Shown piece after piece: positions 8,540 through 58,373 of a DNA stretch of 64,000 nt. The notes beneath the pieces are model-generated. The model was not told the DNA's origin. It saw nothing but the letters and a program-made list of their open reading frames with translations, and did not search any database. Both the position numbers and the translations under genes were made by a program. Within the stretch, counting starts at the first letter, position 1, and each line of letters begins with the position of its first letter. The stretch lies in assembly GCF_054482595.1 (NCBI RefSeq), contig NZ_CM137008.1; one strand, written 5' to 3'.

Positions 8540-8575
8540 AAGGGCTAAGAGCACACTACTCTTAGCCCTTTAACA
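8540..8575. terminator. Bidirectional intrinsic terminator between dinQ and gor
   Basis: Perfect 12 bp stem aagggctaagag / ctcttagccctt with a 7-8 nt loop, between convergent genes. Confidence 0.6.
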
Positions 8576-8576
8576 T

Positions 8577-9929: not shown

Positions 9930-10000
9930 GACAGAGTGTCCTTATCGTTGATTACCGCGATTGTAGCGCGAGACGTAATAGGTGCCAGCGATGGCTGCAA

Positions 10001-42266: not shown

Positions 42267-42303
42267 GGTAACCCCAATGGATTAAAATAGATGGCGGAAA
42301 TAA

Positions 42304-42331
42304 GTATGACGATTTTAAGTATTCGTCATAC
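42304..42331. promoter_or_regulatory. NikR operator upstream of nikA
   Basis: Exact GTATGA-N16-TCATAC dyad (gtatgacgattttaagtattcgtcatac), 38-65 bp upstream of the nikA start. Confidence 0.85.
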
Positions 42332-42376
42332 TGATTACCTGTTCTGGATCAATAGATGGGCAGTCGGGTGGGCGGA

Positions 42377-42964
42377 TCAGTTAACTGAATCGATCCATTG
42401 CACACTGTCGGCGGTGAGCGTAAAGGGGGTGGGGGTGCAGATCGCAAGGCTTAAATTTTCTAGCTGACAATGGCTGACTGACAGCGAGGAGTGATAGGTG
42501 CTATCTACGCTGACGATTTGCCAGGCGCTGCCGCCACGCTGTTTAACGATGGCTTCTTTGCGCGTCCAGATGCGCCAGAACATTTCCAGTTGCTGATCAG
42601 GATGCACGGCGTCCATCTCAGCGTGTTCCCCGAGGCTGAATACGGCGTTCGCCAGCCAGCGCCAGTTGGCGCGCGGGCGAATCACTTCGATATCGCAGCC
42701 GACTTCGCCTTCATCACTCAACAGCAGAGCGATATCGTCACCGCTATGGCTTAAGTTGAACCATAGCGGCGTTTCCGGCGCGAATGCAGGTTTGCCTTGT
42801 TCGCCATAGATGATCTCCGGTAGCGGGGAAAGCGTGTGCGAAAGCAATGCACGCCCCGCCAGCCAGCGTTCGCGTCGTGGACCTTGCGGTGCTTGCTCGC
42901 GTAAACCCGGTGGCAGTGGAGCTGCGCTTAAGGTCGAAACTTTCCCCAGAACTATCCGATACAT
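42377..42964 (-). CDS. acpT: 4'-phosphopantetheinyl transferase AcpT
   Basis: 195 aa from MYRIVLGKVSTLSAAPLPPG; the ATG lies 2 nt downstream of the stop of the preceding ketosynthase gene on the same strand; the longer ORF-track start was rejected. Confidence 0.88.
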   Translation of the reverse strand: MYRIVLGKVSTLSAAPLPPGLREQAPQGPRRERWLAGRALLSHTLSPLPEIIYGEQGKPAFAPETPLWFNLSHSGDDIALLLSDEGEVGCDIEVIRPRANWRWLANAVFSLGEHAEMDAVHPDQQLEMFWRIWTRKEAIVKQRGGSAWQIVSVDSTYHSSLSVSHCQLENLSLAICTPTPFTLTADSVQWIDSVN

Positions 42965-42965
42965 A

Positions 42966-44195
42966 TCAGGGCCAACGTTTAATGATGATGGATGTATTAA
43001 TGCCGCCAAAGGCAAAGTTGTTACTCTGCAAAAACTCACAATCAACCTTGCGGGCTTCATGCATGATGTAATCCAGCGCGCCACAATTCGGGTCTGGTTT
43101 ATTCAGGTTTAGCGTAGGCGCAAACCAACCTTCGCGCATCATTTGCAGACTCATCCAGGCTTCGAGCGCGCCACAGGCACCAAGCGTATGACCAAAATAA
43201 CTTTTCAGCGAGGAGAGCGGCACATTATCACCGTAAATGGTTGCTGTCGCCAGACTTTCTGCCATATCACCGCGATCGGTCGCCGTACCATGCGCTGAAA
43301 TATAGCCGATATCTTGTGCGCTTAACCCGGCGATTTTCAGCGATTGCTCCATACAATACTGCATGGTTTCGCGCTGCGGCTGGGTAATATGTGCCGCGTC
43401 GCAGTTAGTCGCAAAGCCGACGATTTCACCGTAAATGGTCGCGCCGCGCGCTTTGGCGTGCTCCAGTTCTTCGAGAATGAGCGTACCTGCGCCTTCACCA
43501 ATCACCAGCCCGTCGCGGTTTTCATCGAACGGTGAAGGTGTGGTTTTCGGCGCATCATTGTGCTGGCTGGTGGCGAAAAGCGTATCAAATACCGCTGCTT
43601 CTGAAGGACATAACTCTTCGGCACCACCAGCAACCATCACCGTTTGATAACCGTGGCGAATGGCTTCCCACGCATAACCGATTGCCTGGCTGCCGGAAGT
43701 ACAGGCGCTGGAGGTTGGGATCACCCGCCCGCGCAGGCCGAAAAAGAGGCCAGTATTAACGGCGGTGGTGTGCGGCATCATCTGCACATAGGTGGTGCCA
43801 GTGATGTTATTGGTGTGCTTTTCCGTCAGCATGGTGGCGAACTCGCTTACCGGGCCGGTACTGCCGGTCGATGAACCGTACGCAATGCCCGTTTCGCCGC
43901 TGGTTAATATCGGATCGCCAATCAACCCTGCCTGCTCTAACGCCAGCTCGCTGGCACGGGTCGACATTTGCGACACGCGGCCCATCGCACGGATACGCTT
44001 GCGGGTGTAGTGCTCCGGTAGCGTGAAATCATCAACAGGCGCGCCAAGCAGGGTGTGCAGCCCGTCGTAGACCTGCCACTCCGGCATTTTGCGCACCGCA
44101 TTTTCATACGCCAGTAAGCGTGCAGAAACGTCCTGCCAGTTTTCACCAAAGGCAGTCACGCCACCCATTCCTGTAATCACTACGCGACGTGTCAT
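42966..44195 (-). CDS. apeR: Beta-ketoacyl-ACP synthase (KAS I/II-like) of the aryl polyene-type cluster
   Basis: 409 aa; active-site Cys in SSACTSGSQ and His motifs HGTAT and GHTLGACG; letter assignment by position in the conserved apeB-apeR order. Confidence 0.75.
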   Translation of the reverse strand: MTRRVVITGMGGVTAFGENWQDVSARLLAYENAVRKMPEWQVYDGLHTLLGAPVDDFTLPEHYTRKRIRAMGRVSQMSTRASELALEQAGLIGDPILTSGETGIAYGSSTGSTGPVSEFATMLTEKHTNNITGTTYVQMMPHTTAVNTGLFFGLRGRVIPTSSACTSGSQAIGYAWEAIRHGYQTVMVAGGAEELCPSEAAVFDTLFATSQHNDAPKTTPSPFDENRDGLVIGEGAGTLILEELEHAKARGATIYGEIVGFATNCDAAHITQPQRETMQYCMEQSLKIAGLSAQDIGYISAHGTATDRGDMAESLATATIYGDNVPLSSLKSYFGHTLGACGALEAWMSLQMMREGWFAPTLNLNKPDPNCGALDYIMHEARKVDCEFLQSNNFAFGGINTSIIIKRWP

Positions 44196-44923
44196 AACAT
44201 CCCTCCGTTGATGGAAATAACCTGGCGGGTGACGTAACCCGCAATATCAGACATTAAATAACTGGCAAGCCCGGCAACTTCTTCCGCCTGGCCCATACGT
44301 TTCATGGGGATCATCGACATTGCCTCTTTCAGAGCGCTCTCTTCCATTTCGATCATCCCGGTATCAATAAGCCCTGGCGCGATGCAATTGACGGTGATTT
44401 TGCGCTTTGCGAGTTCGATAGCCAGCGCTTTTGTTGCGCCGATAATTCCGGCTTTGGCAGCGCTGTAATTCACCTGGCCGCGATTGCCCATTACGCCGGA
44501 AACCGAGGACAGCGTGATGATGCGCCCACCCTGGCGCGCGCCGATCATTGGCATAATGCACGGCTGAATGACGTTGTAGAAACTGTCGAGATTGGTGTGG
44601 ATCACCGCATCCCAGTCGTCATCGCTTAAAGCCGGAAAAGCGGCATCGCGGGCGATCCCGGCGTTACTGACCACGCCGTACCAGGCACCGTGTTGCGCGA
44701 TCTCATGCTCCAGCACTTCCCGACACTGTTCGCGGTTTGCGACGTCGAAACTGAGCAAACGCCCGTTACCCCCGTTGGCGACAATGGCATTCAGCGTTTC
44801 CTGAGCGCCTGTGGCGTCACGGTGATAGTGAACGCCAATGTTAAAGCCGTCTGCCGCCAGTTGGCAGGCGATGGCGCGACCAATGCCTTTGCTGGCACCA
44901 GTAACCAGAACTGAACGACTCAT
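44192..44923 (-). CDS. apeQ: 3-oxoacyl-ACP reductase (SDR, FabG-like)
   Basis: 243 aa; Rossmann TGASKGIGRAIA; catalytic YSAAK. Confidence 0.75.
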   Translation of the reverse strand: MSRSVLVTGASKGIGRAIACQLAADGFNIGVHYHRDATGAQETLNAIVANGGNGRLLSFDVANREQCREVLEHEIAQHGAWYGVVSNAGIARDAAFPALSDDDWDAVIHTNLDSFYNVIQPCIMPMIGARQGGRIITLSSVSGVMGNRGQVNYSAAKAGIIGATKALAIELAKRKITVNCIAPGLIDTGMIEMEESALKEAMSMIPMKRMGQAEEVAGLASYLMSDIAGYVTRQVISINGGML

Positions 44924-45387
44924 CAGGACGCTCCTTGTTGAAACAGGGTGGTAAGTTCTTCCGCGGTCGGCTGGAAGGTGTTAATGCGGCCCGTCGCCTC
45001 GCCGTCGTTGATGCTGCACTCAAAACTGCCGAAGCGATCGTCCTGCATCAGCAGTTTGACGGTAATGGTCAGCGTCTGGCCTGCGGGCAGAATGCCAGCG
45101 GCGCAAAGCAATTCACGCGCGCCCAGTATCATCCCTAACTCAATACTGTTTTTGCCCTGCTGGTGGCGATGCCAGCCAGACCAGACGCCGACGGTTTGCG
45201 CCATCAGTTCAAGGGCAAACCAGCCAGGGAGATTGCCGTCCGGGTCGAGAAACGGTGCCAGTACGCCACTGGGCGAAACCGTCACGCGGCACACCGCGCT
45301 GTCATCGCTGACGCTCACCACGTCTTCCAGCAGTAACATGGGCGCGTCGTGGGGCAGATAAGCGCCGGGGGATAAATAGTGGCTCAC
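44923..45387 (-). CDS. apeP: Hotdog-fold 3-hydroxyacyl-ACP dehydratase (FabA/FabZ-like)
   Basis: 154 aa hotdog-fold protein between the reductase and ketosynthase genes. Confidence 0.65.
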   Translation of the reverse strand: MSHYLSPGAYLPHDAPMLLLEDVVSVSDDSAVCRVTVSPSGVLAPFLDPDGNLPGWFALELMAQTVGVWSGWHRHQQGKNSIELGMILGARELLCAAGILPAGQTLTITVKLLMQDDRFGSFECSINDGEATGRINTFQPTAEELTTLFQQGAS

Positions 45388-46562
45388 GAAACCCTCCCGA
45401 GCAGAATGCTGGCGTTATTGCCGCCAAAGGCGAAGGAATTGGACAGGATCACCGGACGTGCCAGCGGCTGCGGTTTTTCGATAATGCCGCAGGGTGGCAG
45501 CGTGGGATCGCGTGGCGACAGGCTGAAATCTTGGGCGGGCAGCGGTAAATCACGCTGTAAGATCAACATACTGATTGCTGCTTCGGTAATGCCCGCCGCG
45601 CCCAGCGTGTGGCCGGTCAAATGTTTGGTGGAGCTGCACGGTACGCGTTCGCCAAACAGGGCGTTAACCACCATCGATTCAATCTGGTCGTTGAGTTGCG
45701 TGGCGGTGCCGTGCAGGTTGATATAGCCGACGTCATCTGGCGTAAGCTGCGCATCGGTCAGTGCCTGATTAATGGCGCGGATCGCCCCTTCGCCCTGCGG
45801 ATGCGGGGCCGAAATATGGTAAGCGTCACTCGATTCACCAACGCCCAGCAATGCGATGGGCTGCGGTTCGCGGGTTAATAACATCAGCCCCGCGCCTTCG
45901 CCAATGGTGATACCTGCGCGGTCACGACCGAACGGCTGACATAAAGTTGGCGAGAGCGATTCGAGGCTGTGAAAACCGTTAATCGGCATCCGGCTCAGGG
46001 TGTCTGCGCCACCCACAATGGCGGCATCGACCAGCCCCGTCTCGATAAGCCTGCGCCCGCTGATCATCGCTCTGGCGCTGGAGGAGCAGGCGGTTGAAAG
46101 GGTATAGGCCGGGCCGTCGAGCGCCAGCCAGTGGCTGAGAAAACGCGACGGATCGCCAAGTTCCTGTTGTGCGTAGTGCCATGTGGTGCTCGGCAGCCCG
46201 TGGGTGCGCAGGTTAACGTGCGTGTCGCCTTCATGCAGGCCGGAGGTGCTGGTGCCAAGTACAATCGCGATGCGCTCGCGACCATATTTCGCTATAGCGT
46301 CATCAACCTGCGGCTGGAGCTGCGCCAGCGCCGCCAGCAGGATCTGATTGTTGCGCGAGCGATGCGCAGCGAATTTTTCCGGGATAAGCGGAAGCTCGCC
46401 ATCCACGCCAGCCAGGACCGCCTGCGGATGCCCCTGCAACCAGCCTGCGCGTGGGCGCATTCCGGGGGCGACACCGCGAGCCAGGTTGGCTGCGATTTCG
46501 TCAAGATTATTTCCCAGGGCGTTGATCATGCCGACGGCGGAAATATAAATCATATCAGTCAC
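45384..46562 (-). CDS. apeO: Beta-ketoacyl-ACP synthase (catalytic ketosynthase subunit)
   Basis: 392 aa; Cys in LSTACSSS; His in HGTATQLND and GHTLGAAG. Confidence 0.75.
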   Translation of the reverse strand: MTDMIYISAVGMINALGNNLDEIAANLARGVAPGMRPRAGWLQGHPQAVLAGVDGELPLIPEKFAAHRSRNNQILLAALAQLQPQVDDAIAKYGRERIAIVLGTSTSGLHEGDTHVNLRTHGLPSTTWHYAQQELGDPSRFLSHWLALDGPAYTLSTACSSSARAMISGRRLIETGLVDAAIVGGADTLSRMPINGFHSLESLSPTLCQPFGRDRAGITIGEGAGLMLLTREPQPIALLGVGESSDAYHISAPHPQGEGAIRAINQALTDAQLTPDDVGYINLHGTATQLNDQIESMVVNALFGERVPCSSTKHLTGHTLGAAGITEAAISMLILQRDLPLPAQDFSLSPRDPTLPPCGIIEKPQPLARPVILSNSFAFGGNNASILLGRVS

Positions 46563-47139
46563 CTAAGTATTGAATGGTGATGTGGTATTTAAAGACATGC
46601 TGTTCAATGCTGATTGGCACGCGTTTGCCCTTGCGATTCAGATAGGTGATTTCCGTGACCAGCTTGCCGCTGGCGTTACGCAGCTCGCGTTTGTCACCGT
46701 TGTCGCGAAGTGTCCAGCCAGTGGGAAGTTGCGGTTGCCAGGCGCTAATCGGCCAGTGGCTGAGCATTACGTCAGCCAGCACCTGACTTGCGGGCGGCAA
46801 CTGTGGGACGACGATGGATTGCTCGGCGCGTAGCCCTTGCGCATCGTAGGTCAACAGAAACAGGCGAATGCCGACCGACGACAGCCCGGCAAGGGTGATT
46901 TTCTGGTCGTCGGCGTTAAGCATCACTAACAGCGACTGGGTTTTGCCGTTGAAGCTGCCGGTCAACAGTTGCTGGGAATTGACGGCGGGTGAAATCCCTG
47001 GTGCCGGCAGCGTGATGCGCGTGCCAGGTTGCAGCCACGCCTGCGGGCGGCCTTCCTGTTCCGGTTGCGAGTGGCTACAGCCGGTGAGGATAAGCGTAGC
47101 GGTCAGGGCGAGCGCTCGCCAGAATGTGGGTTTGATCAT
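46555..47139 (-). CDS. apeN: Lipoprotein of the aryl polyene-type cluster
   Basis: 194 aa; signal peptide with lipobox LTGC. Confidence 0.6.
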   Translation of the reverse strand: MIKPTFWRALALTATLILTGCSHSQPEQEGRPQAWLQPGTRITLPAPGISPAVNSQQLLTGSFNGKTQSLLVMLNADDQKITLAGLSSVGIRLFLLTYDAQGLRAEQSIVVPQLPPASQVLADVMLSHWPISAWQPQLPTGWTLRDNGDKRELRNASGKLVTEITYLNRKGKRVPISIEQHVFKYHITIQYLGD

Positions 47140-49454
47140 TTTTTTGTTCTCTTTTTATCGGGCATCGCCAGCGGCGAAAGCAGGAAGGCGGTGAAAATAC
47201 CGCTCACCAGCACAATGCCAAAACTGCTGATGGCCTGGGTGGCGCTGAATACCAGCATTCCCAGCGTCAGCAAGGTGGTGAGCATTGCCAGCGTGATCGC
47301 CAGTAGCGAAGTTAATGGTGTACCGCGCGGATTACTGAAAAACAGCGTGTAGTTGATGCCGATGCCAAGCACCAGCACCAGCGCCAGCAGCGAAAAGAGA
47401 TTCACCGCCTGCCCGCTCATCGCCAGCACCGCCAGACCACAACCCAGCGAAAGCACCGAAGGTACAAGGCTGATAAGCCCTTTGCGCCAGCCGAGACGGG
47501 CCACTGCGCCGCAGGCAATCACCGCCAGCGCCACCAGCAACAAGCCGGTTAAGACATAACGGTAAAGCGCGAACAACTCATCAAAGGTGCTTTTGCGATC
47601 AACCCAGGCAATGCCGCAAGGGTAATATGTGGCGATTTCCTGCATCAACGCGCTACTTTTAACCCCTTCAACCGGCACCAGTACGCCGCTTTCGCCGTTT
47701 TCCAGCGTCAGCCACAGCAGACGCCAGCCTTCACTGGCGGGGCTTGCCAGCCATTCATCAACGTTCACTGGCATGGCGTTGAGATCCGGGTTCACTGCCG
47801 TCAGCCCGGCATTTTGCAGCGCTTTTGTTACTGTCGGGGCCGCCGTTTTCAGCAGTTGTAAATCTTCCTCCTGCCGCGCAAGGGAGTTCAGCGGAATGGT
47901 GCGGTAGTTGCTGATAAGCCCCTCTTTTTTCGCATACTCAAGTGAGGCGGTATATTTCTCCAGTCGCCGCAATGTTTGCTGTGGCGAATCGCCGTAAACC
48001 ACAAACCATTTTTGATCGACGCTTTGTCCGGTCAGGGCGGTAATGGCTTTCTCCTGGGTCAGAATATGCTGCGGCAGCGCCTGTAACTGCGAGATATCGT
48101 CATCGACGCGCAGCATTGACATCCCCGCCAGCGAAAACAGCGCCAGCGCGACGGGCAGACCCAGCGACAGTTTTTTATTGCGCCGCCACGCTGCCAGCCA
48201 GCGCAGCATCAGCGCCATCGCCGGAACCGGACGCACCGGCAGGCCACGGCACAGCCACGGATGCCAGAACAGGACGGTCAGACAGGAGGCGCTCAACCCG
48301 ACGGCGGCAAAAATCGCCATCTGGCGAATGCCGGGGAAGGGGGCGAGCATCATAATCAGATATGCCGCCACGGTGGTGAGCAGCGCCAGCAGCAGGGCAT
48401 TGCGTACTTTCGCCAGGCTTTGCCACGGCGAAACGTCGTTGCCGTGCACCATCCGCTCGGTGAGATAATAGAGCGTGTAGTCAGCGGAAATGCCGATAAC
48501 GCTCATGCTCATCACCAGCGTCATCAGGTGTAATTCACCGAAAATCAATAAAGTGGCGACCGTTCCCGCCAGCGCGCCGATGCCGATGGAAATCACGCAA
48601 AGCAGCAACGGGCGCAAAGAGCGGAACACCGCCACAATCAGCAATATCACCCCCAGCAGCGTTGCCACGCCCAGGGTTGAGATATCCTGCTTCGCCTGTT
48701 GGCTGGCGTAATCGCTGTAAAACACCGTGCCGCGCGAAAGCAGCTGCGCCTGCGGGTAACGCGTTTTCAGATCCTTTTCCAGCGTATTCAGGGTCGTGAT
48801 GAGCTGGTGGGTTTGCTGCATATCAAACGACGATCCCGCCAGTTCACCGTGCAGCAGATACCAGTAGTTGCCCTGGGGATCCTGCGTCACCAGCCAGCCG
48901 TCCATCAGCCGCAAACGCTGGCCGTTTTTCGCCATCGCCAGCTGCGAGCCGCGCATTAACATCAGCGGATCGTTTTGCAGCTCCTTGCCGCTTACCCCGG
49001 AGAACGCAGAATAAAGCTGGGAGAGGATCCACTGCGCCTGCGCTTCGCCGCCGTTTTGCAGGCGCGCGCGGGTGTCGGGGTCAATCAGGCCGTTGCGGTG
49101 CTGCCAGAAAAACGCTCCCCACGCTTGCTGGCTGGCGGCATCCATTGGCCCTTTAACGTCGCCGAGCGCAGCGGATTTTTGCAGCAGCGTCAGCCACTCC
49201 TGAGCGACCCTGGGATTAGCCTCTTTACCGGGGCTGACCAGCCACACCAGTTGGCGGTCCAGACGCTGCATAAAGCCGTCATTCAGCGCTGGGGGAATAT
49301 CGCCCATAGCCTGTTTGGGTAACATAGCCAGCACGCTACTGTTCAGCCGTGATTGCGGCAGCAGGATCAGCAACGCCGCCGCCATGACCAGGCAGACTAG
49401 CCCCCATAACAGCGCGGGGCGTTTACTGGGCGGCAAAACGTTGGCGTTCGTCAT
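47136..49454 (-). CDS. apeM: MMPL/RND-superfamily exporter
   Basis: 772 aa; two transmembrane bundles each followed by a large soluble domain; translationally overlaps its neighbours. Confidence 0.7.
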   Translation of the reverse strand: MTNANVLPPSKRPALLWGLVCLVMAAALLILLPQSRLNSSVLAMLPKQAMGDIPPALNDGFMQRLDRQLVWLVSPGKEANPRVAQEWLTLLQKSAALGDVKGPMDAASQQAWGAFFWQHRNGLIDPDTRARLQNGGEAQAQWILSQLYSAFSGVSGKELQNDPLMLMRGSQLAMAKNGQRLRLMDGWLVTQDPQGNYWYLLHGELAGSSFDMQQTHQLITTLNTLEKDLKTRYPQAQLLSRGTVFYSDYASQQAKQDISTLGVATLLGVILLIVAVFRSLRPLLLCVISIGIGALAGTVATLLIFGELHLMTLVMSMSVIGISADYTLYYLTERMVHGNDVSPWQSLAKVRNALLLALLTTVAAYLIMMLAPFPGIRQMAIFAAVGLSASCLTVLFWHPWLCRGLPVRPVPAMALMLRWLAAWRRNKKLSLGLPVALALFSLAGMSMLRVDDDISQLQALPQHILTQEKAITALTGQSVDQKWFVVYGDSPQQTLRRLEKYTASLEYAKKEGLISNYRTIPLNSLARQEEDLQLLKTAAPTVTKALQNAGLTAVNPDLNAMPVNVDEWLASPASEGWRLLWLTLENGESGVLVPVEGVKSSALMQEIATYYPCGIAWVDRKSTFDELFALYRYVLTGLLLVALAVIACGAVARLGWRKGLISLVPSVLSLGCGLAVLAMSGQAVNLFSLLALVLVLGIGINYTLFFSNPRGTPLTSLLAITLAMLTTLLTLGMLVFSATQAISSFGIVLVSGIFTAFLLSPLAMPDKKRTKK

Positions 49455-50028
49455 CGGTCAGTTGCGCTGGCGTCAGTTGATGTTGGGTAAGAGCAATATC
49501 GGTGCGATCGCCCTGTTTATCATTAAGTTGAATGCTCTCCAGATAGGTTTTCCCGGCGAGATCGATGGTGTTGAAAATTTTATCCAGCGGCGTGGTGGTC
49601 GGCGTCAGGCGCAGCGTCCAGCGGCCTTCGCCTTTGTCAGCAAATTCGACGCGGAAGTTTTGTTCCAGCACTTTGCGATCGGCCTGGAACAGCGCGCGCA
49701 GCAGGTGGTTAAACTGGAACATCTGCGGGTTGTTTTCTGCCGTGATGATTTGCGGCGGCTGACCGTTGATCACCTGCACCATGCGTTTATCATCCAGCAA
49801 TAGCTGCATGGGGAACGGTGAGGTTTGATCCCACAATAACCCCTGGTCGCGGGCGATCAACATCTGACCCTGAGATCGCAGCGGCTGCGGCAGATCTTTA
49901 ATCGTCCGGGTTTGATCAAAATGGGCGCGGATCACCGGTTGTTCGGTAAAGCGTTGCTGAAGATCGTCCAGGGTCAGGGCGCTCACAAACGGGCTAATCA
50001 GCAGCGCCAGCAGCGGTAAAAATTTCAT
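49423..50028 (-). CDS. apeL: LolA-like outer membrane lipoprotein carrier protein
   Basis: 201 aa with signal peptide; LolA-like size and fold inferred from sequence. Confidence 0.65.
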   Translation of the reverse strand: MKFLPLLALLISPFVSALTLDDLQQRFTEQPVIRAHFDQTRTIKDLPQPLRSQGQMLIARDQGLLWDQTSPFPMQLLLDDKRMVQVINGQPPQIITAENNPQMFQFNHLLRALFQADRKVLEQNFRVEFADKGEGRWTLRLTPTTTPLDKIFNTIDLAGKTYLESIQLNDKQGDRTDIALTQHQLTPAQLTDDERQRFAAQ

Positions 50029-50447
50029 GGTTTGACTCCCATGCGTTCAAACAGAATATCGGGGCTGACAAAGCACAGTTCGCGACTTTGCTCGTCGACC
50101 GCGACCTGAATGGTGTATCCGGTGGTGGCGCGTTTGCCCGTTTCGGCATCGAAAATCTGATAGCCAATCCGCAGACGGTTTTCGAACTCTTCGATATGCG
50201 CACGCACGCGGATGCGTTGCTCAAAGGTGAGGGCGTGGCGATATTTCACCCGCGCATCGACCACTGGCCACAAATAACCGGACTCTTTCATCTGCCGATA
50301 GCCGTAATTGAACTGGTTGAGCAGCGCCTCGCGGGCCACTTCAAAGTAGCGAAAATAGTTACCGTGCCAGGCCACGCCCATCATATCGACGTCGTGAAAG
50401 GGAATGGTCAGCTCGACTTCAGCGGTAAATCGGGGATCGTTAAGCAC
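50025..50447 (-). CDS. apeK: Hotdog-fold acyl-ACP/CoA thioesterase (4HBT family)
   Basis: 140 aa; …IPFHDVDMMGVAWHGNYFRYFE… is typical of 4HBT thioesterases. Confidence 0.7.
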   Translation of the reverse strand: MLNDPRFTAEVELTIPFHDVDMMGVAWHGNYFRYFEVAREALLNQFNYGYRQMKESGYLWPVVDARVKYRHALTFEQRIRVRAHIEEFENRLRIGYQIFDAETGKRATTGYTIQVAVDEQSRELCFVSPDILFERMGVKP

Positions 50448-50450
50448 CCT

Positions 50451-52127
50451 TTACTCCTTGTCCTGAATTTCCGGCAGTTGCCAGAAATCGAAAAAATTAA
50501 ACCAGTCGAGGGGCGACTGGAGCGCGTAATGTTCCAGACGCGCGGCGTAGTGGTCGATAGCGTTTTGCAGCGCCTGCTGGCGTTCGCCACGCGGCAGTTG
50601 CAGCGGGTCGGCAAAGCTTTCGCAGTGAATATGCAGCTTGCCGTGCTGGCGTAGGGCGAAAATCAGATTCACTGGGCAGCGCAAAATAGAGGCGAGAATA
50701 AACGGCCCCTGTGGGAAGGGCGCAGGCTGGCCCATAAACGGACTCCAGCAGACGCGCCAGTCGCCGCCGCGTTGCGGGGTGACGGCGATGCGGTCACCGA
50801 CAATCGCCACCCATTCGCCGTTATCCAGCTTCTCTTTCAGCAGGATGGCGGTTTCTGGGCCGATATCTGTTACCGGCATCAGGTTAATGCCTGCCTGAGG
50901 AGCCATCTCCTGCATTATCTGTTTAAAGCGTTGGGCGTTTTCGCTAAACACCAGCGCGTTAATGGTTTTGTAGCCCTGAATTTTTGCCAGCGCCCGGCAC
51001 ACTTCCACATCGCCAAGATGCGAGGCCAGCAGCAATTTGCCGCGCGGATCGCGGACGTCAAGCGCCGCTTCTGCGCCTGGCGCAAACAGCACATCACGCC
51101 CCAGTTGTAGCTCGCCGCGCCAGCTGGCGATTTTGTCGAGCATGGCATTACCGAAACGTAGAAAGTGCTGATAGCTGTTGAGTTTTGCCGCCTGTGGTTG
51201 ATGCTGTCGTACACGGGCGAGCCAGTCTTGCGACGCTTTGCGCGCACGAGAAGCAGTGAGCCAGTAGACGCCCACCACCGGGTAAAGCAGCGCGCTAAAC
51301 GCCGTTCTTCCCAGCAGACGCCAGACCAGCAGCATCAGGCGCATTCCCCATAATCCTTTCACTTCACTCTGCCGCGCCCAGTGGCTGGAAGAGCGGCGCA
51401 TCAGCAGTGAAGGAATACGCGGTAACATGCCGAAAAATAGACGCGTGTGCATGAGCGAGATGCGGACGTTATCTTTCAGGGCATCAAAATGCGAAAGCCC
51501 GTCCAGTGGATAGGTGACGCGGGTCGGCACGAAATAGCTGGTGTTTCCCTGCCAGTAGAGGCGCACCATCACTTCAGTGTCGAAATCCATCCGCTTGCCG
51601 ATGGTGGCGTGTTTTGCCAGTTGCAGCGTTGGCGCAACCGGATAAACGCGAAAGCCGCACATGCTGTCTTTCAGTTGCAGGGAGAGCGTTTCGATCCATA
51701 CCCAGACGTGGGTGACCCAGCGCCCGTAAAGCCGTGAGCGGGGGATGGAGTCATCGTAAATTGGCTGGCCGGAGATCAGCGCCGCAGGGTGTTGTTCAGC
51801 GACTGCCAGCAGTTTGGGGATATCTTCAATCGCATGTTGACCGTCAGCATCCACCTGCACTGCATGGCTGAACCCTGCGTCTGCCGCTGCCTGTAAGCCA
51901 CGCATCACTGCCGCGCCTTTACCTGCGTTTTCTGCTAAGCGAATTAAGGTCACGCCAGGCTGTTCGCTAACCAGATTATCCAGTTGCTGTTGCGTGGCGG
52001 CATCGCTGCCGTCGTCCACCACAATACAGGGGAGATTAAATGGCTTAAGACGCGCCAGCACGCCCGGCATCATCGCGCCGTGGTTATAGCAGGGGATCAA
52101 CACGCAGGGAGAAAAGTTTACCGACAT
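50451..52127 (-). CDS. apeJ: Bifunctional family-2 glycosyltransferase / LpxL-like acyltransferase
   Basis: 558 aa; N-terminal GT2 (CVLIPCYNHG…VVDDGSDA), C-terminal lipid A acyltransferase-like domain. Confidence 0.7.
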   Translation of the reverse strand: MSVNFSPCVLIPCYNHGAMMPGVLARLKPFNLPCIVVDDGSDAATQQQLDNLVSEQPGVTLIRLAENAGKGAAVMRGLQAAADAGFSHAVQVDADGQHAIEDIPKLLAVAEQHPAALISGQPIYDDSIPRSRLYGRWVTHVWVWIETLSLQLKDSMCGFRVYPVAPTLQLAKHATIGKRMDFDTEVMVRLYWQGNTSYFVPTRVTYPLDGLSHFDALKDNVRISLMHTRLFFGMLPRIPSLLMRRSSSHWARQSEVKGLWGMRLMLLVWRLLGRTAFSALLYPVVGVYWLTASRARKASQDWLARVRQHQPQAAKLNSYQHFLRFGNAMLDKIASWRGELQLGRDVLFAPGAEAALDVRDPRGKLLLASHLGDVEVCRALAKIQGYKTINALVFSENAQRFKQIMQEMAPQAGINLMPVTDIGPETAILLKEKLDNGEWVAIVGDRIAVTPQRGGDWRVCWSPFMGQPAPFPQGPFILASILRCPVNLIFALRQHGKLHIHCESFADPLQLPRGERQQALQNAIDHYAARLEHYALQSPLDWFNFFDFWQLPEIQDKE

Positions 52128-52501
52128 AGGCGGATCTTCCCGCTACTGGCGGTGTGGCGGGCGTCACCGTCGTGACGCTGATAGCTAAAGCTCAGAATCT
52201 GGCGTTCTTCCTGCCAGTTAAGCGCGAGCGTGACGCGGTTTTCCGGCAGCAACGGAGACTGGAATTTTATGTTCTGAATGGAGTGAAAACGCCAGCCAGG
52301 CGCGAGCAGATTGAGCGCGTAGCTCATCGCCCAGTCGATTTGCGCAACTCCTGGGAGTAATGGTTGCACGGCAAAATGACCGCGAAACCAGAACAGATCC
52401 GCCCTGAGATGCAGAACAATTTCAAGGTGATTCGTTTGTGCCTGATGGCGCTCGATTTCATGGGGCTTCATGAAATAACTCCTGTAATTGCGCATAGACA
52501 C
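52118..52501 (-). CDS. apeI: Hotdog-fold dehydratase (FabA/FabZ-like)
   Basis: 127 aa hotdog-fold protein; second dehydratase-like gene in the cluster. Confidence 0.6.
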   Translation of the reverse strand: MSMRNYRSYFMKPHEIERHQAQTNHLEIVLHLRADLFWFRGHFAVQPLLPGVAQIDWAMSYALNLLAPGWRFHSIQNIKFQSPLLPENRVTLALNWQEERQILSFSYQRHDGDARHTASSGKIRLCR

Positions 52502-53858
52502 GCTTGTTCATACTGTTTACTGGCATTTCATCAATAACGCGCCAGTAACGCGGAATAGCAACTGGCTCCAGCGTCGGGCGCAGTAAACGCCGCCAGGTCA
52601 TTTCCTGGCTATGCCCGCCGCCGTTCTGCCATTGCAGATGAGCTTCGTCATCCAGCACCAGCAAAACGCCTATGCTCTGACGCCCGCCGCGCGTAACGGG
52701 AACTGCCGCCGCCTCGCGAATGCCGTCCAGCGCCAGTAGACGTTGTTCTACTTCCTGGAGTGAAATACGTTTTTCTTCAATCTTAACGATGCGCCCACGA
52801 CGCCCCATCAGATGGAACTGACCATCTTCGCTAAGCTGTAAGATATCGTCGAGTAACAGGCCGTTATCTTCCGCTATCAGCGGTGAAAAGAGGCGAAAGG
52901 CATCGCCTTCGGCTTGGAACTGCATACCTGGGAGGGGTAGCCAGCGGCGTTGCTCTTGTTCGCGGTAACGCCAGGCGATGACGCCGGTTTCCGTGCTGCC
53001 GTAGATTTCATCAGGCCAGACGCGCAGCCAGCTTGCGGTGTGTTGTACATCCTGCCACGGCAGCTCACCGCCAGCAGAGAGAAGCACCTGAACGGGTGGC
53101 GGAGAAAGCTGGGTATCCAGGCGCTTCAAAAATGCCGGGCTGCTGATGAAGATATAGCGATGCTGATGACTCAACGCGGCAAACTGTTCGACATACCAGA
53201 GCATGGCGGCGTGCAGCGGTAATCCCAACGCCATGGGCAGGAAAACACGAAAAGTCAGGCCGTACAAATGCTGCGGCAATACGGAACCGACGACACGACA
53301 ACCCGCCAGACGTGCGCCTAATCGTTCAGCCAGCAGTTCTGCTTCACGATCCAGCAAATGAACAGGTTTAATCACCCGTTTCGGCTGTCCCGTGGAACCG
53401 GAGGTAAACAGCTCGATAAAAGCCTCTGGCGCTATAGCGGCAAAGGTGAAGGATTGTGTCGCGACTTGTGGGGAACTTGCTACCAACAGCCATGAACCTT
53501 GCCAGTTAAGTTCGCTGTCGCTAAGCACACCATCGAACAGTTCACGTTGCTCGTTAAGCTGGATGACACGGTTATGCCCCGGAAGCACCGGTGTTTTTCC
53601 GGCGTGTAGCGTGGCGAGCAGGGCAACGATAAACAGATAGCTGTTCTCAAAGCACAGCGCCCAGCGTTCACCCGGCTGTTGCTGCAAGCGGCAGATAAGT
53701 TGCGCGACATCGTGACGCAAATCGCCCAGCGTCCAGGTGCTTTCGTCCAGCCACGCAATGGGCGTGTCATCAGGGCGTGGCGCAGTCAGCCAGCGTGCAA
53801 GCGGTAAGGTCTGCTTCATGCGCGATCTCTTTTCATCACCTGACGGCGCACCAGCCAT
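52458..53858 (-). CDS. apeH: AMP-dependent synthetase/ligase (adenylating enzyme; putative aryl starter activation)
   Basis: 466 aa; AMP-binding motif FTSGSTGQPK; ORF-track start overlaps neighbours by ~43 nt, so the true start may be downstream. Confidence 0.7.
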   Translation of the reverse strand: MAGAPSGDEKRSRMKQTLPLARWLTAPRPDDTPIAWLDESTWTLGDLRHDVAQLICRLQQQPGERWALCFENSYLFIVALLATLHAGKTPVLPGHNRVIQLNEQRELFDGVLSDSELNWQGSWLLVASSPQVATQSFTFAAIAPEAFIELFTSGSTGQPKRVIKPVHLLDREAELLAERLGARLAGCRVVGSVLPQHLYGLTFRVFLPMALGLPLHAAMLWYVEQFAALSHQHRYIFISSPAFLKRLDTQLSPPPVQVLLSAGGELPWQDVQHTASWLRVWPDEIYGSTETGVIAWRYREQEQRRWLPLPGMQFQAEGDAFRLFSPLIAEDNGLLLDDILQLSEDGQFHLMGRRGRIVKIEEKRISLQEVEQRLLALDGIREAAAVPVTRGGRQSIGVLLVLDDEAHLQWQNGGGHSQEMTWRRLLRPTLEPVAIPRYWRVIDEMPVNSMNKRVYAQLQELFHEAP

Positions 53859-54397
53859 TCACCAGCCATTAATGTTCCCATCAACAAATAAGCAATCATG
53901 CCGTTCCAGGCGGTCCATAACGACATATCGGCATAAAGCGCGGTAAAGAGGGCAATTCCACCGTTAATGATGAAAAAGCCGCACCAGATTTGCGTGACGT
54001 GGCGGGTATAGCGCACGCCCTTTTCCGGGAGGTCTGGCTCCTGCAACCGCGCCAGCCGCTCAACTATCGGCATTGCCGACCACAGCGAACCGCCAAAAAC
54101 CGCCAGCATGACCGCGTTAACCACTACCGGGTAAAACAGCAGTAGCTGGTGCGTTTTCAACATAAAGCTGGCGACACATAATGCGATGCCCACGACAGCG
54201 ACGAGTTGCGTGACGGCTTGTAAAGGCCCCGCCTGGCGACGGGTCTGGCGCAGACGCAACAAAAGCAGCAACGCCATTAGCGGTAACAGCCAGTGCAGGC
54301 CGTTATGCGCTAAGCCAAACCAAATCACAAACGGCCAGGCGAGCAGCAATAATCCAGTCAGCAGCTTAATCATCGGTAGCGAGCGAATGCCCGACAT
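53816..54397 (-). CDS. apeG: Integral membrane protein of the aryl polyene-type cluster
   Basis: 193 aa with several transmembrane segments. Confidence 0.55.
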   Translation of the reverse strand: MSGIRSLPMIKLLTGLLLLAWPFVIWFGLAHNGLHWLLPLMALLLLLRLRQTRRQAGPLQAVTQLVAVVGIALCVASFMLKTHQLLLFYPVVVNAVMLAVFGGSLWSAMPIVERLARLQEPDLPEKGVRYTRHVTQIWCGFFIINGGIALFTALYADMSLWTAWNGMIAYLLMGTLMAGEWLVRRQVMKRDRA

Positions 54398-54401
54398 CAG
54401 A

Positions 54402-54653
54402 TCAGGCTTCTTGTAGCAGGCGTTCTACAGCCTCGACGACATCCTGGACTGTACGCACGGCTTTAAACTCTTCCGGCTTGATTTTCTTACCGGTTTTCTT
54501 TTGCAGGTGCACAATCATGTCAACGGCGTCGATGCTGTCCAGTTCCAGATCTTCGTACAGGCGCGCTTCAGGTTTGATGTCCTGCGGATCGATTTCAAAC
54601 AGCTTAACCAGCAGGGCTGAGACTTCCTGATAGACGGTTTGTTGTTCTGTCAT
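54402..54653 (-). CDS. apeF: Acyl carrier protein
   Basis: 83 aa; phosphopantetheine attachment motif LELDSIDAVD. Confidence 0.8.
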   Translation of the reverse strand: MTEQQTVYQEVSALLVKLFEIDPQDIKPEARLYEDLELDSIDAVDMIVHLQKKTGKKIKPEEFKAVRTVQDVVEAVERLLQEA

Positions 54654-54664
54654 GATGGCTTTCC

Positions 54665-54922
54665 TCAGGCACGTTGCGCAGCAATGAAAGAGGCCAGAGT
54701 GGCGACGGAGAAAAAGTGCTGACGCATCTCTTCGCTTTCCGCAGAGAGCACGATGCCGTACTCATTTTTTACTGCCAGTCCCAGTTCCAGGGCATCGATA
54801 GAGTCCAGCCCTAAACCGTCGCCAAACAGCGGCGCGTCGGTATCGATATCATCAGGCGTCAACTCGTCCAGATTGAGGGTGCTGATGATGAGGTTTTTAA
54901 TTTCCAGATAAAGCGCTTGCAT
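54665..54922 (-). CDS. apeE: Acyl carrier protein
   Basis: 85 aa; motif LGLDSIDALE. Confidence 0.8.
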   Translation of the reverse strand: MQALYLEIKNLIISTLNLDELTPDDIDTDAPLFGDGLGLDSIDALELGLAVKNEYGIVLSAESEEMRQHFFSVATLASFIAAQRA

Positions 54923-55736
54923 TATTTATTCCTGAGAGAGGTAAACAACCTTGTTGTAATTGAAGCAAAAGATGCCGGTTTAACTGCCTTGCTGCCAGCG
55001 CCGGTTCTTGTGAAGTTGCATCGTAAAATTTATTGATTTCAACCCGACCATGGACTGCAACCGTAAAAAACGGCCGGTCAGGTGGAACGTCATACCATTT
55101 ACTTTGTTTATCCAGCAGATGCTCGCTACAGCCGATCGTCACGATGCGTAAATCGCTGGCACAGCGCACGGCAATATTCGCCGCCCCGCGCTGCAGCGTC
55201 ATTTTTTCACCGGGCTTCGTTCGCGTGCCTTCGGGGAAAATCAGGATAGTGTCACCCTGTGCCAGTCGCTGTTGGCAGCGGGGTAACAGGGTTTCAGCTT
55301 CGCTGTTGATTAAATAATCTGCCGCCCGCACGACGCCGCCAAGAAAAGGATTTTTTAACAGCGCGCTTTTCACCAGGCAGTCAGTTTCTGGCATGACTGA
55401 CGCCAGCAGCACGTAATCGATCAGCGTGGGATGATTGGCTACGACGAGGCAACCGCGTTCCTGACGTAAAATTTCAGCGCCATCAATACGATAATCCAGC
55501 ACGCCAAGCCCTTTCGCGACAGTTAAAAACAGGCGAAAACTGGCGGCAATGCTGCGACGCGCCAAACGACGGCGGCGGGAAGTATCCCACACCAAAACTA
55601 ACAATATGTTAAACCACACGACAGAAAGCAGCAGGCCGCCGAGACCAAACAGGGCAAAACATAACCCGGTCATGACCAGTCGCCAGGTCCACTCCAGACG
55701 TGACAGCAGCTTACTCATCCACGGCTCCAGCGCCAC
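54897..55736 (-). CDS. apeD: Lysophospholipid acyltransferase (PlsC/LPLAT family)
   Basis: 279 aa; H(X4)D motif in VVANHPTLIDYVLL and FPEGTRT motif. Confidence 0.7.
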   Translation of the reverse strand: MALEPWMSKLLSRLEWTWRLVMTGLCFALFGLGGLLLSVVWFNILLVLVWDTSRRRRLARRSIAASFRLFLTVAKGLGVLDYRIDGAEILRQERGCLVVANHPTLIDYVLLASVMPETDCLVKSALLKNPFLGGVVRAADYLINSEAETLLPRCQQRLAQGDTILIFPEGTRTKPGEKMTLQRGAANIAVRCASDLRIVTIGCSEHLLDKQSKWYDVPPDRPFFTVAVHGRVEINKFYDATSQEPALAARQLNRHLLLQLQQGCLPLSGINNASALSGN

Positions 55737-56461
55737 TGTACGCGCTCGCCAGGCAGTGAAAATGTGTCCGCATTTTGTAAATAGTGCTGTAAAAACAACA
55801 TGCTTTGCGGCAGTGTTGTTTCATTACCCGCAATGGCTGACTGCGTTTCACATTGCCACTCATCGCCAGCTTCAATCACCAGCGCGACGGCGTACGGCCA
55901 GGTCGGCATTTCTGCGGGCAGTTGTGGATGATAGAACTCAGGCAGAAAGCCATCAAAATCGACCATCAGCACGCGCTGGTATCCCGCTTGTAACAGGCTA
56001 AGCACTTCACACAAACCTTGCTGGAAAGTGTCGCGACCAGCAGAAAGCGATGACGAAACGATCGGCTGTTTGGCCGCAATGGTCAGGTTACCCACGGAAG
56101 AGTTGTGTACTGAAAGTGCAAAGTCGGTCGGAGAAAGCGCCTGTTCGGTTGCCAGTGCATGAACAATGCGGTAATTGCGCTCCAGTTCGCCATGACGACT
56201 GGTATACAAAACGGCGTCTGGCTGATGGCGGCGTAGCATTGCCAGACCGCATTCAACAGCCAGTTTGCTGCCTGAACTGAGGCGGCGGGCGGTCATCATT
56301 GGCAGTTCACTTAATTTTGCCAACGGCGCGGCAGGGTCAATCGCCCACGGCTGGCGCGACCATGCTTGCCATTGCTGCGCTTCGCTAAGTCCAGGCGCCA
56401 GTGCCTGCCAGTCGGTAATATTTAATGTAAATTTCATCAACGCGCGCCCGCGGTAAACCAA
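55715..56461 (-). CDS. apeC: Ketosynthase-like protein lacking the active-site Cys (chain-length-factor-like partner)
   Basis: 248 aa; ketosynthase N-terminal-like fold without a Cys-His-His triad. Confidence 0.6.
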   Translation of the reverse strand: MVYRGRALMKFTLNITDWQALAPGLSEAQQWQAWSRQPWAIDPAAPLAKLSELPMMTARRLSSGSKLAVECGLAMLRRHQPDAVLYTSRHGELERNYRIVHALATEQALSPTDFALSVHNSSVGNLTIAAKQPIVSSSLSAGRDTFQQGLCEVLSLLQAGYQRVLMVDFDGFLPEFYHPQLPAEMPTWPYAVALVIEAGDEWQCETQSAIAGNETTLPQSMLFLQHYLQNADTFSLPGERVQWRWSRG

Positions 56462-56477
56462 AATTATTAAGTGACGA

Positions 56478-57545
56478 TTATTTCTTTTGGCATATCAAAA
56501 GTGTATGCCCAACGCCTAAATTATCGTGGCGCTCTGCTACCTGGAATCCTGCTTTATTCAGATAGTCGTAAAATTTCTCTGCACTATAGAAACGGCTGTT
56601 ACCGTTTGCCATGCAGGTAAAATAAAGTGAGGACGCGTTCAGGCTAAATGATGCTGCTTCAAACCGCTGCGCATCCCAGAACAACTCCATGATGCAAACT
56701 TTTGCGCCAGGCTTCATTACGCTGGCAATTTTGCTGAGTATGCTAATTATTTGTTCGGGTGAAAAACAGTCTAAAAATTGGCTCATCCACCAGATATCAG
56801 CCTCGCCCGGTAATGGGGCATCGCTTAGCATATCCACCGCATGGAAATCTATGCGATCAGAAAAACCTGCATTCGCGATATTTTCTTTCGCTAGTACGAT
56901 TTGTTGTGGCAGATCTAATAACGTCACGGCGATGTTTTCATTGTATTTGCAGCAACGCAAAGCCCACTTACCCGTATTGCCGCCTACATCGTACAATGTT
57001 GTGGGGTTGTTGGCGAATACATAAGGCAGTGCGGCGTTAAATGCGCCATCTGAATAGTAATGATCAAACGCAAACCAGCTTTCACGAGCGGCGTCTGGTA
57101 ATTGCGAAAGTGCCGGATATATCGTCGACCAGTCGCCAAATACTTTTAACCCGGAAGGTTTTCCTTCATTGAGTGAATCGGCGAGGAAGAAGAGCCCCTG
57201 GTAACAGACATCCTGGGTGAAATCCATATTCACGCGAGTCATAGTGTCATGCAGGAGGTAATGACCGATTTTCGCCAGGTAATAAATTCCCTCTTTACAG
57301 GTAATAATTCGCCCGCTTAAGCCCATATCTAACAGAACGCTGGCAGCATATTCGTTGATATGGCTATGTTCGGTGATATCAGCCAGCGTTGCGCCATGTT
57401 TGCCTTGCCGATCCAGATATGAAAGTACACCCGCATTACGTAGGCAGAGTGCTGTTTGAAAAAGCATAGGGGCAAAGGCAATGCGTTGAGCTTCGGTAAT
57501 CGCATCCAGTGCGCTAAGAGAATCCTGTTCGTACATGTTGGGCAC
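56478..57545 (-). CDS. apeB: SAM-dependent methyltransferase
   Basis: 355 aa; class I methyltransferase glycine-rich motif DVGGNTGKWAL. Confidence 0.7.
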   Translation of the reverse strand: MPNMYEQDSLSALDAITEAQRIAFAPMLFQTALCLRNAGVLSYLDRQGKHGATLADITEHSHINEYAASVLLDMGLSGRIITCKEGIYYLAKIGHYLLHDTMTRVNMDFTQDVCYQGLFFLADSLNEGKPSGLKVFGDWSTIYPALSQLPDAARESWFAFDHYYSDGAFNAALPYVFANNPTTLYDVGGNTGKWALRCCKYNENIAVTLLDLPQQIVLAKENIANAGFSDRIDFHAVDMLSDAPLPGEADIWWMSQFLDCFSPEQIISILSKIASVMKPGAKVCIMELFWDAQRFEAASFSLNASSLYFTCMANGNSRFYSAEKFYDYLNKAGFQVAERHDNLGVGHTLLICQKK

Positions 57546-57604
57546 AACCTGTTAAGAGGGAATTAAATTATTATCGGACCGCAACGGCCCGACTTTAGGA
57601 AGAA

Positions 57605-57994
57605 TTATAAATCTGCGCCCGCTGACAAATTCAGTTGAATATCTTTGTCGAGATTGCGGACCCAGCGATTGTAGTTTTTATGAATTTGTCCGCCTGACGC
57701 TTGTAGGTTCTGGCTATTTTCATAATTGATATCGTAGCTGGATGCCGTGTAGTTAATGCGTATTTCCGCTGAATGATCGCGTGACTGTTGACGTGCTTTA
57801 ATTATGCCTTGTCCGGCTTCGGACATAATCCATTTGCGTTCAACGCCAGCTTTCAGAATCGCTTTTTTCACTTGTTCCTGGGTATGACCAGCGCTGACGG
57901 TTGAGTGAACCTGATCAATTGGCGCAGTACGCGCGCAACCTGCTAAAGCACCCACAACAGCAATAGCCGCAAACCATTTCATGTAATGTCTCAT
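57605..57994 (-). CDS. Small lipoprotein, possible first gene of the biosynthetic operon
   Basis: 129 aa; signal peptide and lipobox LAGC; AT-rich 380 bp promoter-like region upstream. Confidence 0.55.
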   Translation of the reverse strand: MRHYMKWFAAIAVVGALAGCARTAPIDQVHSTVSAGHTQEQVKKAILKAGVERKWIMSEAGQGIIKARQQSRDHSAEIRINYTASSYDINYENSQNLQASGGQIHKNYNRWVRNLDKDIQLNLSAGADL

Positions 57995-58373
57995 TAGAAC
58001 CCCATTAAAGTATTGTTTTTACGAGTAAAGCAAGATTTAACTGTAATTGCTGGCATCACTATTCTTTATTTAGAGAAAAAATTACTTGTGAGATAAGTCA
58101 GTAAGTGCACATCAGAGTAAAAATCTCTGAAATGACTAAATTACTGCCAGCAGGGACCAACTATAAGTGAGTGAGAAAAATGAGGCAATAAAAATAACAC
58201 AATGTTATCAGTGCATTCTTTGAGAAGGATTTAATCGCTATTCGGCGTTTATATATATTTGACTTAAGGAATGGTTTTTTTAAATTAATTTTCTGAATAA
58301 TGTTTCATCATTTCCTCAAATCAAATGGCCACTGTTAGATAAACGGTGGCCATTGCCTGCTCAGGAGGTGCTA

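Follow-up and report, generated by a model that had tools for sequence, protein, structure and literature searches.

The phosphopantetheinyl transferase gene acpT as the probable last gene of the enterobacterial aryl-polyene operon and its retention after cluster loss

Introduction

Does acpT, the gene for a 4'-phosphopantetheinyl transferase (PPTase), belong to the biosynthetic cluster that it abuts, and what keeps it intact in genomes from which that cluster is missing? We asked this of a 64,000-nucleotide stretch of DNA (hereafter the window; contig NZ_CM137008.1 of RefSeq assembly GCF_054482595.1), in which acpT directly follows apeR, the last gene of an aryl-polyene (APE) cluster. An earlier note on the window, made from its letters alone, had proposed that acpT is the distal gene of the polyene operon, that the two acyl carrier proteins (ACPs) of the cluster are its substrates, and that acpT is left as an orphan where the cluster is lacking. 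Taking our results together, the APE operon of enterobacteria very probably comprises nineteen genes, of which acpT is the last, coupled to apeR and encoding the PPTase for the ACPs ApeE and ApeF, and it was orphaned by deletion of the cluster.

The link between acpT and the cluster, together with the orphan story for Escherichia coli K-12, was already published in 2006. In E. coli O157:H7 EDL933 the island bears the name O-island 138, and its genes Z4853 and Z4854 are annotated as putative ACPs. As cited in PMC8253772, De Lay and Cronan (Mol Microbiol 61:232, PMID 16824108) claim that AcpT activates the island ACPs and that the AcpT of K-12 was orphaned by a genome rearrangement. The window shares with EDL933 this gene, the island and both ACPs, and nothing essential differs. 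The main value of the present analysis is that it confirms a correct annotation. What it may add is the family-wide junction of 1–3 nucleotides, the missing Shine-Dalgarno sequence, the apeR relics and the equal constraint on acpT after cluster loss; these comparative additions are modest but useful.

Results

The window is part of an E. coli chromosome, and E. coli strain XH990 is 100% identical to it over positions 42200-44400. In the RefSeq annotation of XH990, the genes on the minus strand run in the order yhhT, apeA to apeR (18 genes), acpT and nikABCDE-nikR (Table 1). The coding sequence of apeR ends in AAA CGT TGG CCC TGA, with the stop codon at 42968-42966 (minus strand); a single T at 42965 forms the spacer, and the ATG of acpT occupies 42964-42962. 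The earlier note had placed the two genes next to each other on the same strand with this very ATG, and that part stood. Its spacing of 2 nucleotides did not, the spacer being 1 nucleotide long; a count of 2 is obtained from the last base of the stop codon to the A of the ATG. The gene apeR scored 778 bits against NCBIfam model NF006587 (cut-off 470), and its position in the cluster corresponds to that of ApeR (c1186) in Table 1 of PMC8253772.

We placed the start of acpT at the ATG at 42964 because model NF007676 aligns over residues 1-195 of 195 and because M1-Y2 are invariant in an alignment of 16 orthologs from Enterobacteriaceae. A 235-amino-acid open reading frame (ORF) at 42377..43084, with a GTG start at 43084, stood in the program-made ORF list and was rejected as the acpT model.

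To place this junction among those of other species, we took the best 80 loci with an AcpT ortholog (59-98% identity) from a scan of one genome per bacterial species, and mapped the cluster and flanking proteins onto them. ApeR lay directly upstream of acpT in 52 of these 80 species-representative loci, and the 3' end of ApeR did so in 2 more, on truncated contigs. The gap from stop codon to ATG was 1 nucleotide in 22 loci, 2 nucleotides in 27 and 3 nucleotides in 1, making 50 of the 52; the remaining two cluster-bearing loci had a degraded ApeR. The 50 tight junctions differ from one another in their stop codon, which may be TGA, TAA or TAG, and in the bases of the spacer. The conserved junction occurs in at least 14 genera, which include Escherichia, Citrobacter, Superficieibacter, Raoultella, Kosakonia, Klebsiella, Enterobacter and Leclercia as well as Lelliottia, Silvania, Pluralibacter, Kluyvera and Cedecea. 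Between genera, the synonymous sites of acpT are saturated (synonymous substitutions per site, dS, 1.4-2.0), and the kept spacing is therefore not explained by a lack of time. The downstream neighbour of acpT differs by lineage (NikA, NikR, a 178-amino-acid protein, a short-chain dehydrogenase/reductase and others); acpT thus travels with apeR and not with nik.

Within the cluster of the window, junctions range from -32 to +68 nucleotides, and the gap between apeN and apeO is 1 nucleotide, the same as that between apeR and acpT. Because 14 of the 18 cluster junctions are overlaps or gaps of at most 4 nucleotides, and because the gap of 1–3 nucleotides persists in 50 of the 52 cluster-bearing loci despite saturated synonymous sites, the juxtaposition of apeR and acpT exceeds chance. 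Base composition was rejected as a guide to the affiliation of acpT with its neighbours, the GC content overall and at third codon positions being 0.568/0.612 for acpT, 0.551/0.598 for apeR and 0.540/0.625 for nikA.

A search for ApeR homologues returned Atlantibacter and Cronobacter among the top matches. Both Atlantibacter hermannii and Cronobacter turicensis encode, 2 nucleotides after ApeR and in yet another neighbourhood, a PF01648 protein that is only 40-42% identical to AcpT. On a Pantoea metagenome contig (4237-4300), apeR is followed by a GC-rich hairpin with a T-run and then by a gene for a TonB-dependent receptor, without a PPTase. Linkage to acpT itself seems to be confined to the Enterobacteriaceae in the strict sense.

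The signals around the junction point in the same direction. The predicted duplex of the acpT leader with the anti-Shine-Dalgarno sequence reaches only -1.5 kcal/mol, among the weakest values in the cluster, compared with -8 to -11 kcal/mol for apeP, apeQ and apeR, and the mean for acpT over the 50 cluster-bearing loci is -3.0 kcal/mol. The gene thus has essentially no Shine-Dalgarno sequence, and the TGA-T-ATG layout fits translational coupling to apeR by termination and reinitiation; coupling is probable because acpT lacks a Shine-Dalgarno sequence of its own. A crude consensus scan of the minus strand from 46506 to 42000 revealed no promoter-like site, and its sole terminator match was weak, at chance level and inside apeQ. 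From the sequence, we infer that acpT is co-transcribed and translationally coupled with the cluster. The proposal that acpT is the distal gene of the operon is therefore supported by the shared strand, the 1-nucleotide gap, the missing Shine-Dalgarno sequence and the junction kept across genera.

We examined 5426 complete E. coli genomes for the fate of both genes. Full-length acpT was present in 5425 of them, whereas apeR was found in 824 and was contiguous with acpT in only 569. About 255 genomes (the Nissle / DA61218 type, including Nissle 1917) carry the cluster at a second site, unlinked to acpT; there, apeR (about 97% DNA identity) is followed by frameshifted genes and pseudogenes (garD and others), without a PPTase. 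Strain A33 has apeR in two places, and the apeR of O157:H7 genomes matches that of the window at 99.8%.

The cluster-less E. coli allele consists of yhhT, a 54-nucleotide spacer and acpT. Direct comparison of alleles, among them those of DA61218 and CRE10, showed that the 20 nucleotides surviving upstream of acpT, CATTAAACGTTGGCCCTGAT, represent the last five apeR codons and the stop codon, before the ATG of acpT; the megablast breakpoint fell at query position 1417 in every cluster-less genome among the matches listed. The C-terminus of the second-site ApeR is identical (IIKRWP and stop), and distant genera end similarly. Because the C-terminus found in the relic is thus native to apeR at the second site and in distant genera, the cluster-less allele arose by deletion and does not represent the state before an insertion. 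The left breakpoint lies at the third base of the last yhhT codon (GGT TAA versus GGA TGA) and leaves the YhhT protein unchanged. Between the two breakpoints, window positions 58377..42985 (15,393 nucleotides) are replaced by a 38-nucleotide filler, which a search of the window, the island and all 86 loci found only in other cluster-less Escherichia alleles. A scan of the 54-nucleotide spacer found no promoter, and acpT in this allele is probably read through from yhhT.

Other genera have lost the cluster at other breakpoints. The apeR relics in cluster-less alleles span about 15 to about 135 nucleotides: about 135 in two Enterobacter species, at least 67 in another and about 27 decayed nucleotides in the Citrobacter freundii complex. 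No apeR relic was detectable in a further Enterobacter group. Enterobacter asburiae INSAq146 (5658-10001) shows a partial deletion, in which yhhT, apeA-apeE and a 3' relic of apeR are kept directly upstream of acpT and apeF through most of apeR are missing. Because the breakpoints differ between genera, these sequences indicate at least four to five independent losses of the cluster. Those of Escherichia, Salmonella and some Citrobacter appear to derive from one old deletion, since their fillers are homologous. The presence of apeR 3' relics upstream of acpT bears out the view that acpT is an orphan in cluster-less genomes.

The filler and relic of cluster-less Escherichia and Salmonella together form an ORF of 17-18 codons, MRRQVIRYALSFSIKRWP and stop (CRE10 locus 3963-4020). 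Its ATG overlaps the yhhT stop codon (ATGA), and its TGA lies 1 nucleotide before the ATG of acpT. This mini-ORF is not universal: one locus has ATA for ATG, and a TAG breaks the frame in the C. freundii complex. Where intact, it could relay translational coupling from yhhT to acpT, which has no Shine-Dalgarno sequence. We also observed that the 15 nucleotides before the acpT ATG, AACGTTGGCCCTGAT (window 42965-42980), are identical in cluster-less Escherichia and Salmonella arizonae and differ by 1 mismatch in S. diarizonae, while the adjacent filler has diverged and the synonymous sites of acpT are saturated (dS about 2). Since AACGTTGGCCCTGAT was kept as these diverged, the pattern suggests that the translation-initiation region of acpT is constrained even where it no longer encodes ApeR.

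The product of acpT has the features of a PPTase. AcpT scored 44.1 bits against PF01648 (ACPS superfamily; cut-off 25; residues 88-164) and 396 bits against the equivalog model NF007676 (cut-off 174), and its sequence matched the Sfp structure 1QR0 with E = 6e-9. An AlphaFold2 model (predicted local distance difference test 87.9, predicted template modelling score 0.81) had its best full-length matches in Sfp (4MRT/1QR0), human AASDHPPT, PptT and PcpS (TMq 0.5-0.66, E down to 3e-9); AcpS structures covered about half of the model (TMq about 0.3). The motifs VGCDIE (88-93) and WTRKEAIVK (133-141) display the G-x-D-x-E and W/F-x-x-K-E-x-x-x-K patterns; none of the 52 cluster-bearing orthologs deviates from either motif, and D91, E93, K136, E137 and K141 are thus kept throughout. 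Because Pfam, NCBIfam, the sequence match in the Protein Data Bank and the predicted fold agree, AcpT is assigned as a short Sfp-type (group II) PPTase, with a predicted monomeric pseudo-dimer fold of two similar alpha/beta subdomains as opposed to the AcpS type of about 120 amino acids. The protein (WP_000285784.1) is identical in the cluster-bearing strain XH990 and the cluster-less strain CRE10.

The cluster encodes candidate substrates for such an enzyme. Its genes encode, in order, a lipoprotein, a methyltransferase, a chain-length-factor ketosynthase, an acyltransferase, two ACPs, a hypothetical protein, an AMP-binding enzyme, a FabZ-like dehydratase, a glycosyltransferase, a thioesterase, a LolA-like protein, an MMPL protein, a DUF3261 protein, a ketosynthase, the ApeP dehydratase, FabG2 and a ketosynthase. 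Pfam searches recovered ketoacyl-synt in ApeO and ApeR, Ketoacyl-synt_2 (the chain-length factor) in ApeC, ApeP-like PF22817, adh_short/KR and two PP-binding domains. The APE core set is present, namely two ketosynthases, a partner resembling a chain-length factor, the ApeP and FabZ dehydratases, a ketoreductase, two ACPs and an adenylating starter enzyme, as are genes for export and attachment (LolA-like, MMPL/RND, DUF3261, acyltransferase and glycosyltransferase; RefSeq, XH990). Both ACP ORFs named in the earlier note exist (54653..54402 and 54922..54665) and match PF00550; ApeF also matches TIGR00517. According to PMC8253772 (citing PMID 16824108), AcpT activates the ApeE and ApeF homologues of O157:H7 EDL933 in vitro.

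Selective constraint on acpT was estimated as the pairwise Nei-Gojobori ratio of nonsynonymous to synonymous substitution rates (dN/dS). In groups lacking the cluster, dN/dS was 0.065 for four Escherichia species, 0.065 for seven species of the C. freundii complex (mean dS 0.57), 0.107 for two Salmonella subspecies and 0.185 for the Enterobacter group without a detectable relic; cluster-bearing clades gave 0.094-0.143. Because the ratio is just as low where Escherichia, the C. freundii complex and Salmonella lack the cluster, the orphan gene is, by this sequence measure, not decaying. The catalytic residues were kept in 23 of 25 cluster-less orthologs. Enterobacter sichuanensis and E. wuhouensis (acpT 10001-10573) have an intact ORF in which a metal-binding Asp is replaced by Ser (D91S, VGCSLE for VGCDIE), and the E. 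wuhouensis gene also carries H73Q/S74C (SQC for SHS). The D91S species could reflect either catalytic decay or retention for a non-catalytic role.

Discussion

Our account of the locus runs as follows. A promoter upstream of apeA would drive a single transcript of apeA-apeR and acpT, and ribosomes terminating at the apeR stop codon would restart 1 nucleotide downstream on acpT. AcpT would then move the phosphopantetheine arm from coenzyme A to Ser41 of ApeE and Ser40 of ApeF, and the two proteins, once modified, would be able to carry the growing polyene chain. A deletion from the last yhhT codon to a point 20 nucleotides upstream of acpT removed the cluster from most E. coli, K-12 among them, from Salmonella and from the C. 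freundii complex, and left acpT downstream of yhhT.

Several points weigh against this account. Linkage to acpT is not needed for cluster function, because about 255 E. coli genomes carry the cluster without an adjacent PPTase. The counts of acpT (5425 of 5426) and of the cluster (824), together with a dN/dS that is equally low in cluster-less clades, suggest that acpT is more than a gene of the cluster. Because AcpT served as the query in retrieving the loci, genomes outside E. coli that are missing both acpT and the cluster are invisible to this approach. Finally, the promoter and terminator scans used crude consensus patterns, which leave room for a weak promoter inside apeR.

One alternative accepts operon membership, with which it is compatible, and holds that selection acts on acpT independently of the cluster, through another carrier protein that AcpT modifies or through a part in envelope or lipopolysaccharide (LPS) homeostasis that does not involve catalysis; activating the APE ACPs would then be just one task of AcpT among others. 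We consider this possible but unlikely. It would explain why dN/dS is no higher in cluster-less Escherichia, the C. freundii complex and Salmonella (0.065-0.107) than in cluster-bearing clades, why the at least four to five separate deletions all end short of acpT, and why two cluster-less Enterobacter species keep an intact acpT ORF with D91S. Against this, the catalytic residues retained in 23 of the 25 cluster-less orthologs favour a catalytic role. The alternative can also draw on the literature, in which overexpressed acpT suppresses yejM/lapC mutants, reportedly with no need for its enzymatic activity, and stabilises LpxC; such suppression, however, requires overexpression. Three further points weigh against the alternative: species lacking the cluster at this locus may carry an APE cluster elsewhere, as is the case in about 255 E. 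coli genomes; acpT alleles could be kept clean through recombination with strains that bear the cluster; and AcpT-based retrieval brings ascertainment bias.

In its more specific form, this alternative gives AcpT a second, cluster-independent function, perhaps the catalysis-independent link to YejM/LapC and LpxC in the control of LPS, a suggestion that we offer tentatively. If it is true, acpT is no passive orphan but a gene kept intact through at least four to five cluster deletions under equally strong purifying selection. The persistence of a constrained acpT in thousands of cluster-less genomes would then connect to the unexplained genetics of acpT with yejM and LpxC. To call the orphan gene "left behind and useless" would be an incomplete account of it.

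A second alternative makes AcpS or EntD the main activator of the cluster ACPs in vivo, with AcpT dispensable for polyene synthesis. The cluster of uropathogenic E. coli CFT073, which has no PPTase, works in a K-12 host, and the responsible host PPTase was not determined in that study (PMC8253772); ApeF, moreover, scores as a fairly ordinary ACP (NF003757, TIGR00517). That same K-12 host, however, carries the "orphan" acpT besides acpS and entD. Modification of both island ACPs by AcpT is on record (PMC8253772, citing PMID 16824108), and the tight linkage of acpT and apeR across genera is hard to explain if AcpT is irrelevant to the pathway. We therefore regard this alternative as very improbable.

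The view that acpT is an independent core gene with its own signals, upstream of which an island was inserted by accident in a functionally meaningless arrangement, can draw on the near-universal presence of acpT in E. coli with an adjacent cluster in only 569 genomes, on the cataloguing of the cluster as O-island 138 and on the cluster copy at a second site without acpT, but it is largely refuted by the sequence data, in which cluster-less alleles keep the last five apeR codons and the stop as the mark of a deletion, the 1–3-nucleotide junction persists in at least 14 genera despite different downstream genes, and an acpT without a Shine-Dalgarno sequence follows a 1-nucleotide spacer with no room for a promoter, and we give it hardly any credence.

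Membership of acpT in the APE operon also bears on how the E. coli cluster has been described. The cluster of CFT073 (APE_Ec; c1204-c1186; Cimermancic 2014; Johnston 2021, PMC8253772) agrees with that of the window in all 18 genes, apeA-apeR, and in how they are ordered and oriented, and production of the pigment, a cell-bound aryl polyene, has been shown for that copy (PMC8253772). This B2-type cluster lies elsewhere in the chromosome and is followed by pseudogenes and not by a PPTase, whereas acpT abuts apeR in the window and in 50 of the 52 cluster-bearing loci. In the aryl-polyene literature, for which the CFT073 copy has been the model, the E. coli cluster is said to have no PPTase (PMC8253772). 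The statement that there is no dedicated PPTase is true only of the translocated CFT073-type copy; the native cluster at the yhhT locus, across the Enterobacteriaceae, ends with acpT.

With such an end, the cluster resembles other pathways in its general plan. Sfp-type PPTases are encoded alongside the biosynthetic clusters they serve in several systems, including Sfp with surfactin, EntD with enterobactin, ClbA with colibactin, and HetI. AcpT shares with these enzymes the Sfp-type fold and motifs and the position of its gene beside those of the carrier proteins served. It differs from them in being shorter (195 amino acids versus about 225-240 for cluster-encoded Sfp-type PPTases; about 21% identity to Sfp), in serving discrete type II ACPs where its relatives serve modules of nonribosomal peptide synthetases or polyketide synthases, and in persisting after cluster loss, unlike most cluster-encoded Sfp-type PPTases.

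Other features of the locus

Table 1. Positions and evidence for features of the yhhT-ape-acpT-nik region in the window
Feature	Position	Strand	Evidence
acpT, 195-amino-acid Sfp-type 4'-phosphopantetheinyl transferase	42377..42964	-	ORF; PF01648; NCBIfam NF007676; RefSeq
apeR, last beta-ketoacyl-ACP synthase of the aryl-polyene cluster, 409 amino acids	42966..44195	-	PF00109 and PF02801; NF006587; RefSeq
Junction TGA-T-ATG (apeR stop, spacer, acpT start)	42962..42968	-	Direct sequence reading
Aryl-polyene cluster apeA-apeR, 18 genes	42966..57982	-	RefSeq annotation of XH990; junction table; Pfam
20 nucleotides surviving upstream of acpT in cluster-less E. coli, CATTAAACGTTGGCCCTGAT	42965..42984	-	Megablast breakpoint; direct allele comparison
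apeF, ACP, 83 amino acids, Ser40 in LDSID	54402..54653	-	PF00550; NF003757, 146 bits (cut-off 65); AcpP alignment
apeE, ACP, 85 amino acids, Ser41 in LDSID	54665..54922	-	PF00550; NF006617, 90.8 bits (cut-off 70); AcpP alignment
Promoter-like site TTGCCT-17-TATAGT, candidate operon promoter	58160..58188	-	Consensus scan only, 9/12 matches
Terminator-like hairpin AATGGCCAC-N13-GTGGCCATT, then TGATTT	58324..58354	-	Sequence; RNA fold
Palindrome GTATGA-N16-TCATAC in the 110-nucleotide acpT-nikA spacer	42304..42331	-	Sequence; RNA fold

At the upstream end of the cluster, the candidate promoter is the only promoter-like site before apeA and lies within the AT-rich spacer between yhhT and apeA. The terminator-like hairpin directly follows the yhhT stop codon, precedes the candidate promoter (58188..58160) and is missing from the cluster-less allele of E. 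coli CRE10. Array data for EDL933 indicate that several island genes are negatively RpoS-dependent in stationary phase; two EDL933 expression studies name island genes, acpT not being among them.

Downstream of acpT, a consensus scan of the spacer before nikA found no canonical terminator. The perfect palindrome at 42304..42331, which we take to fit the NikR operator consensus, would form as RNA a 10-bp stem followed by UUAUUU (z = -2.8), and it is the only terminator-like hairpin after acpT. Since this is the sole element of its kind there, read-through from the polyene operon into nikA may be possible.

GC content is 0.41-0.48 at the 5' end of the cluster (window 56400-58800), which takes in apeA, apeB and the spacer between yhhT and apeA, compared with 0.55-0.61 in the remaining cluster.

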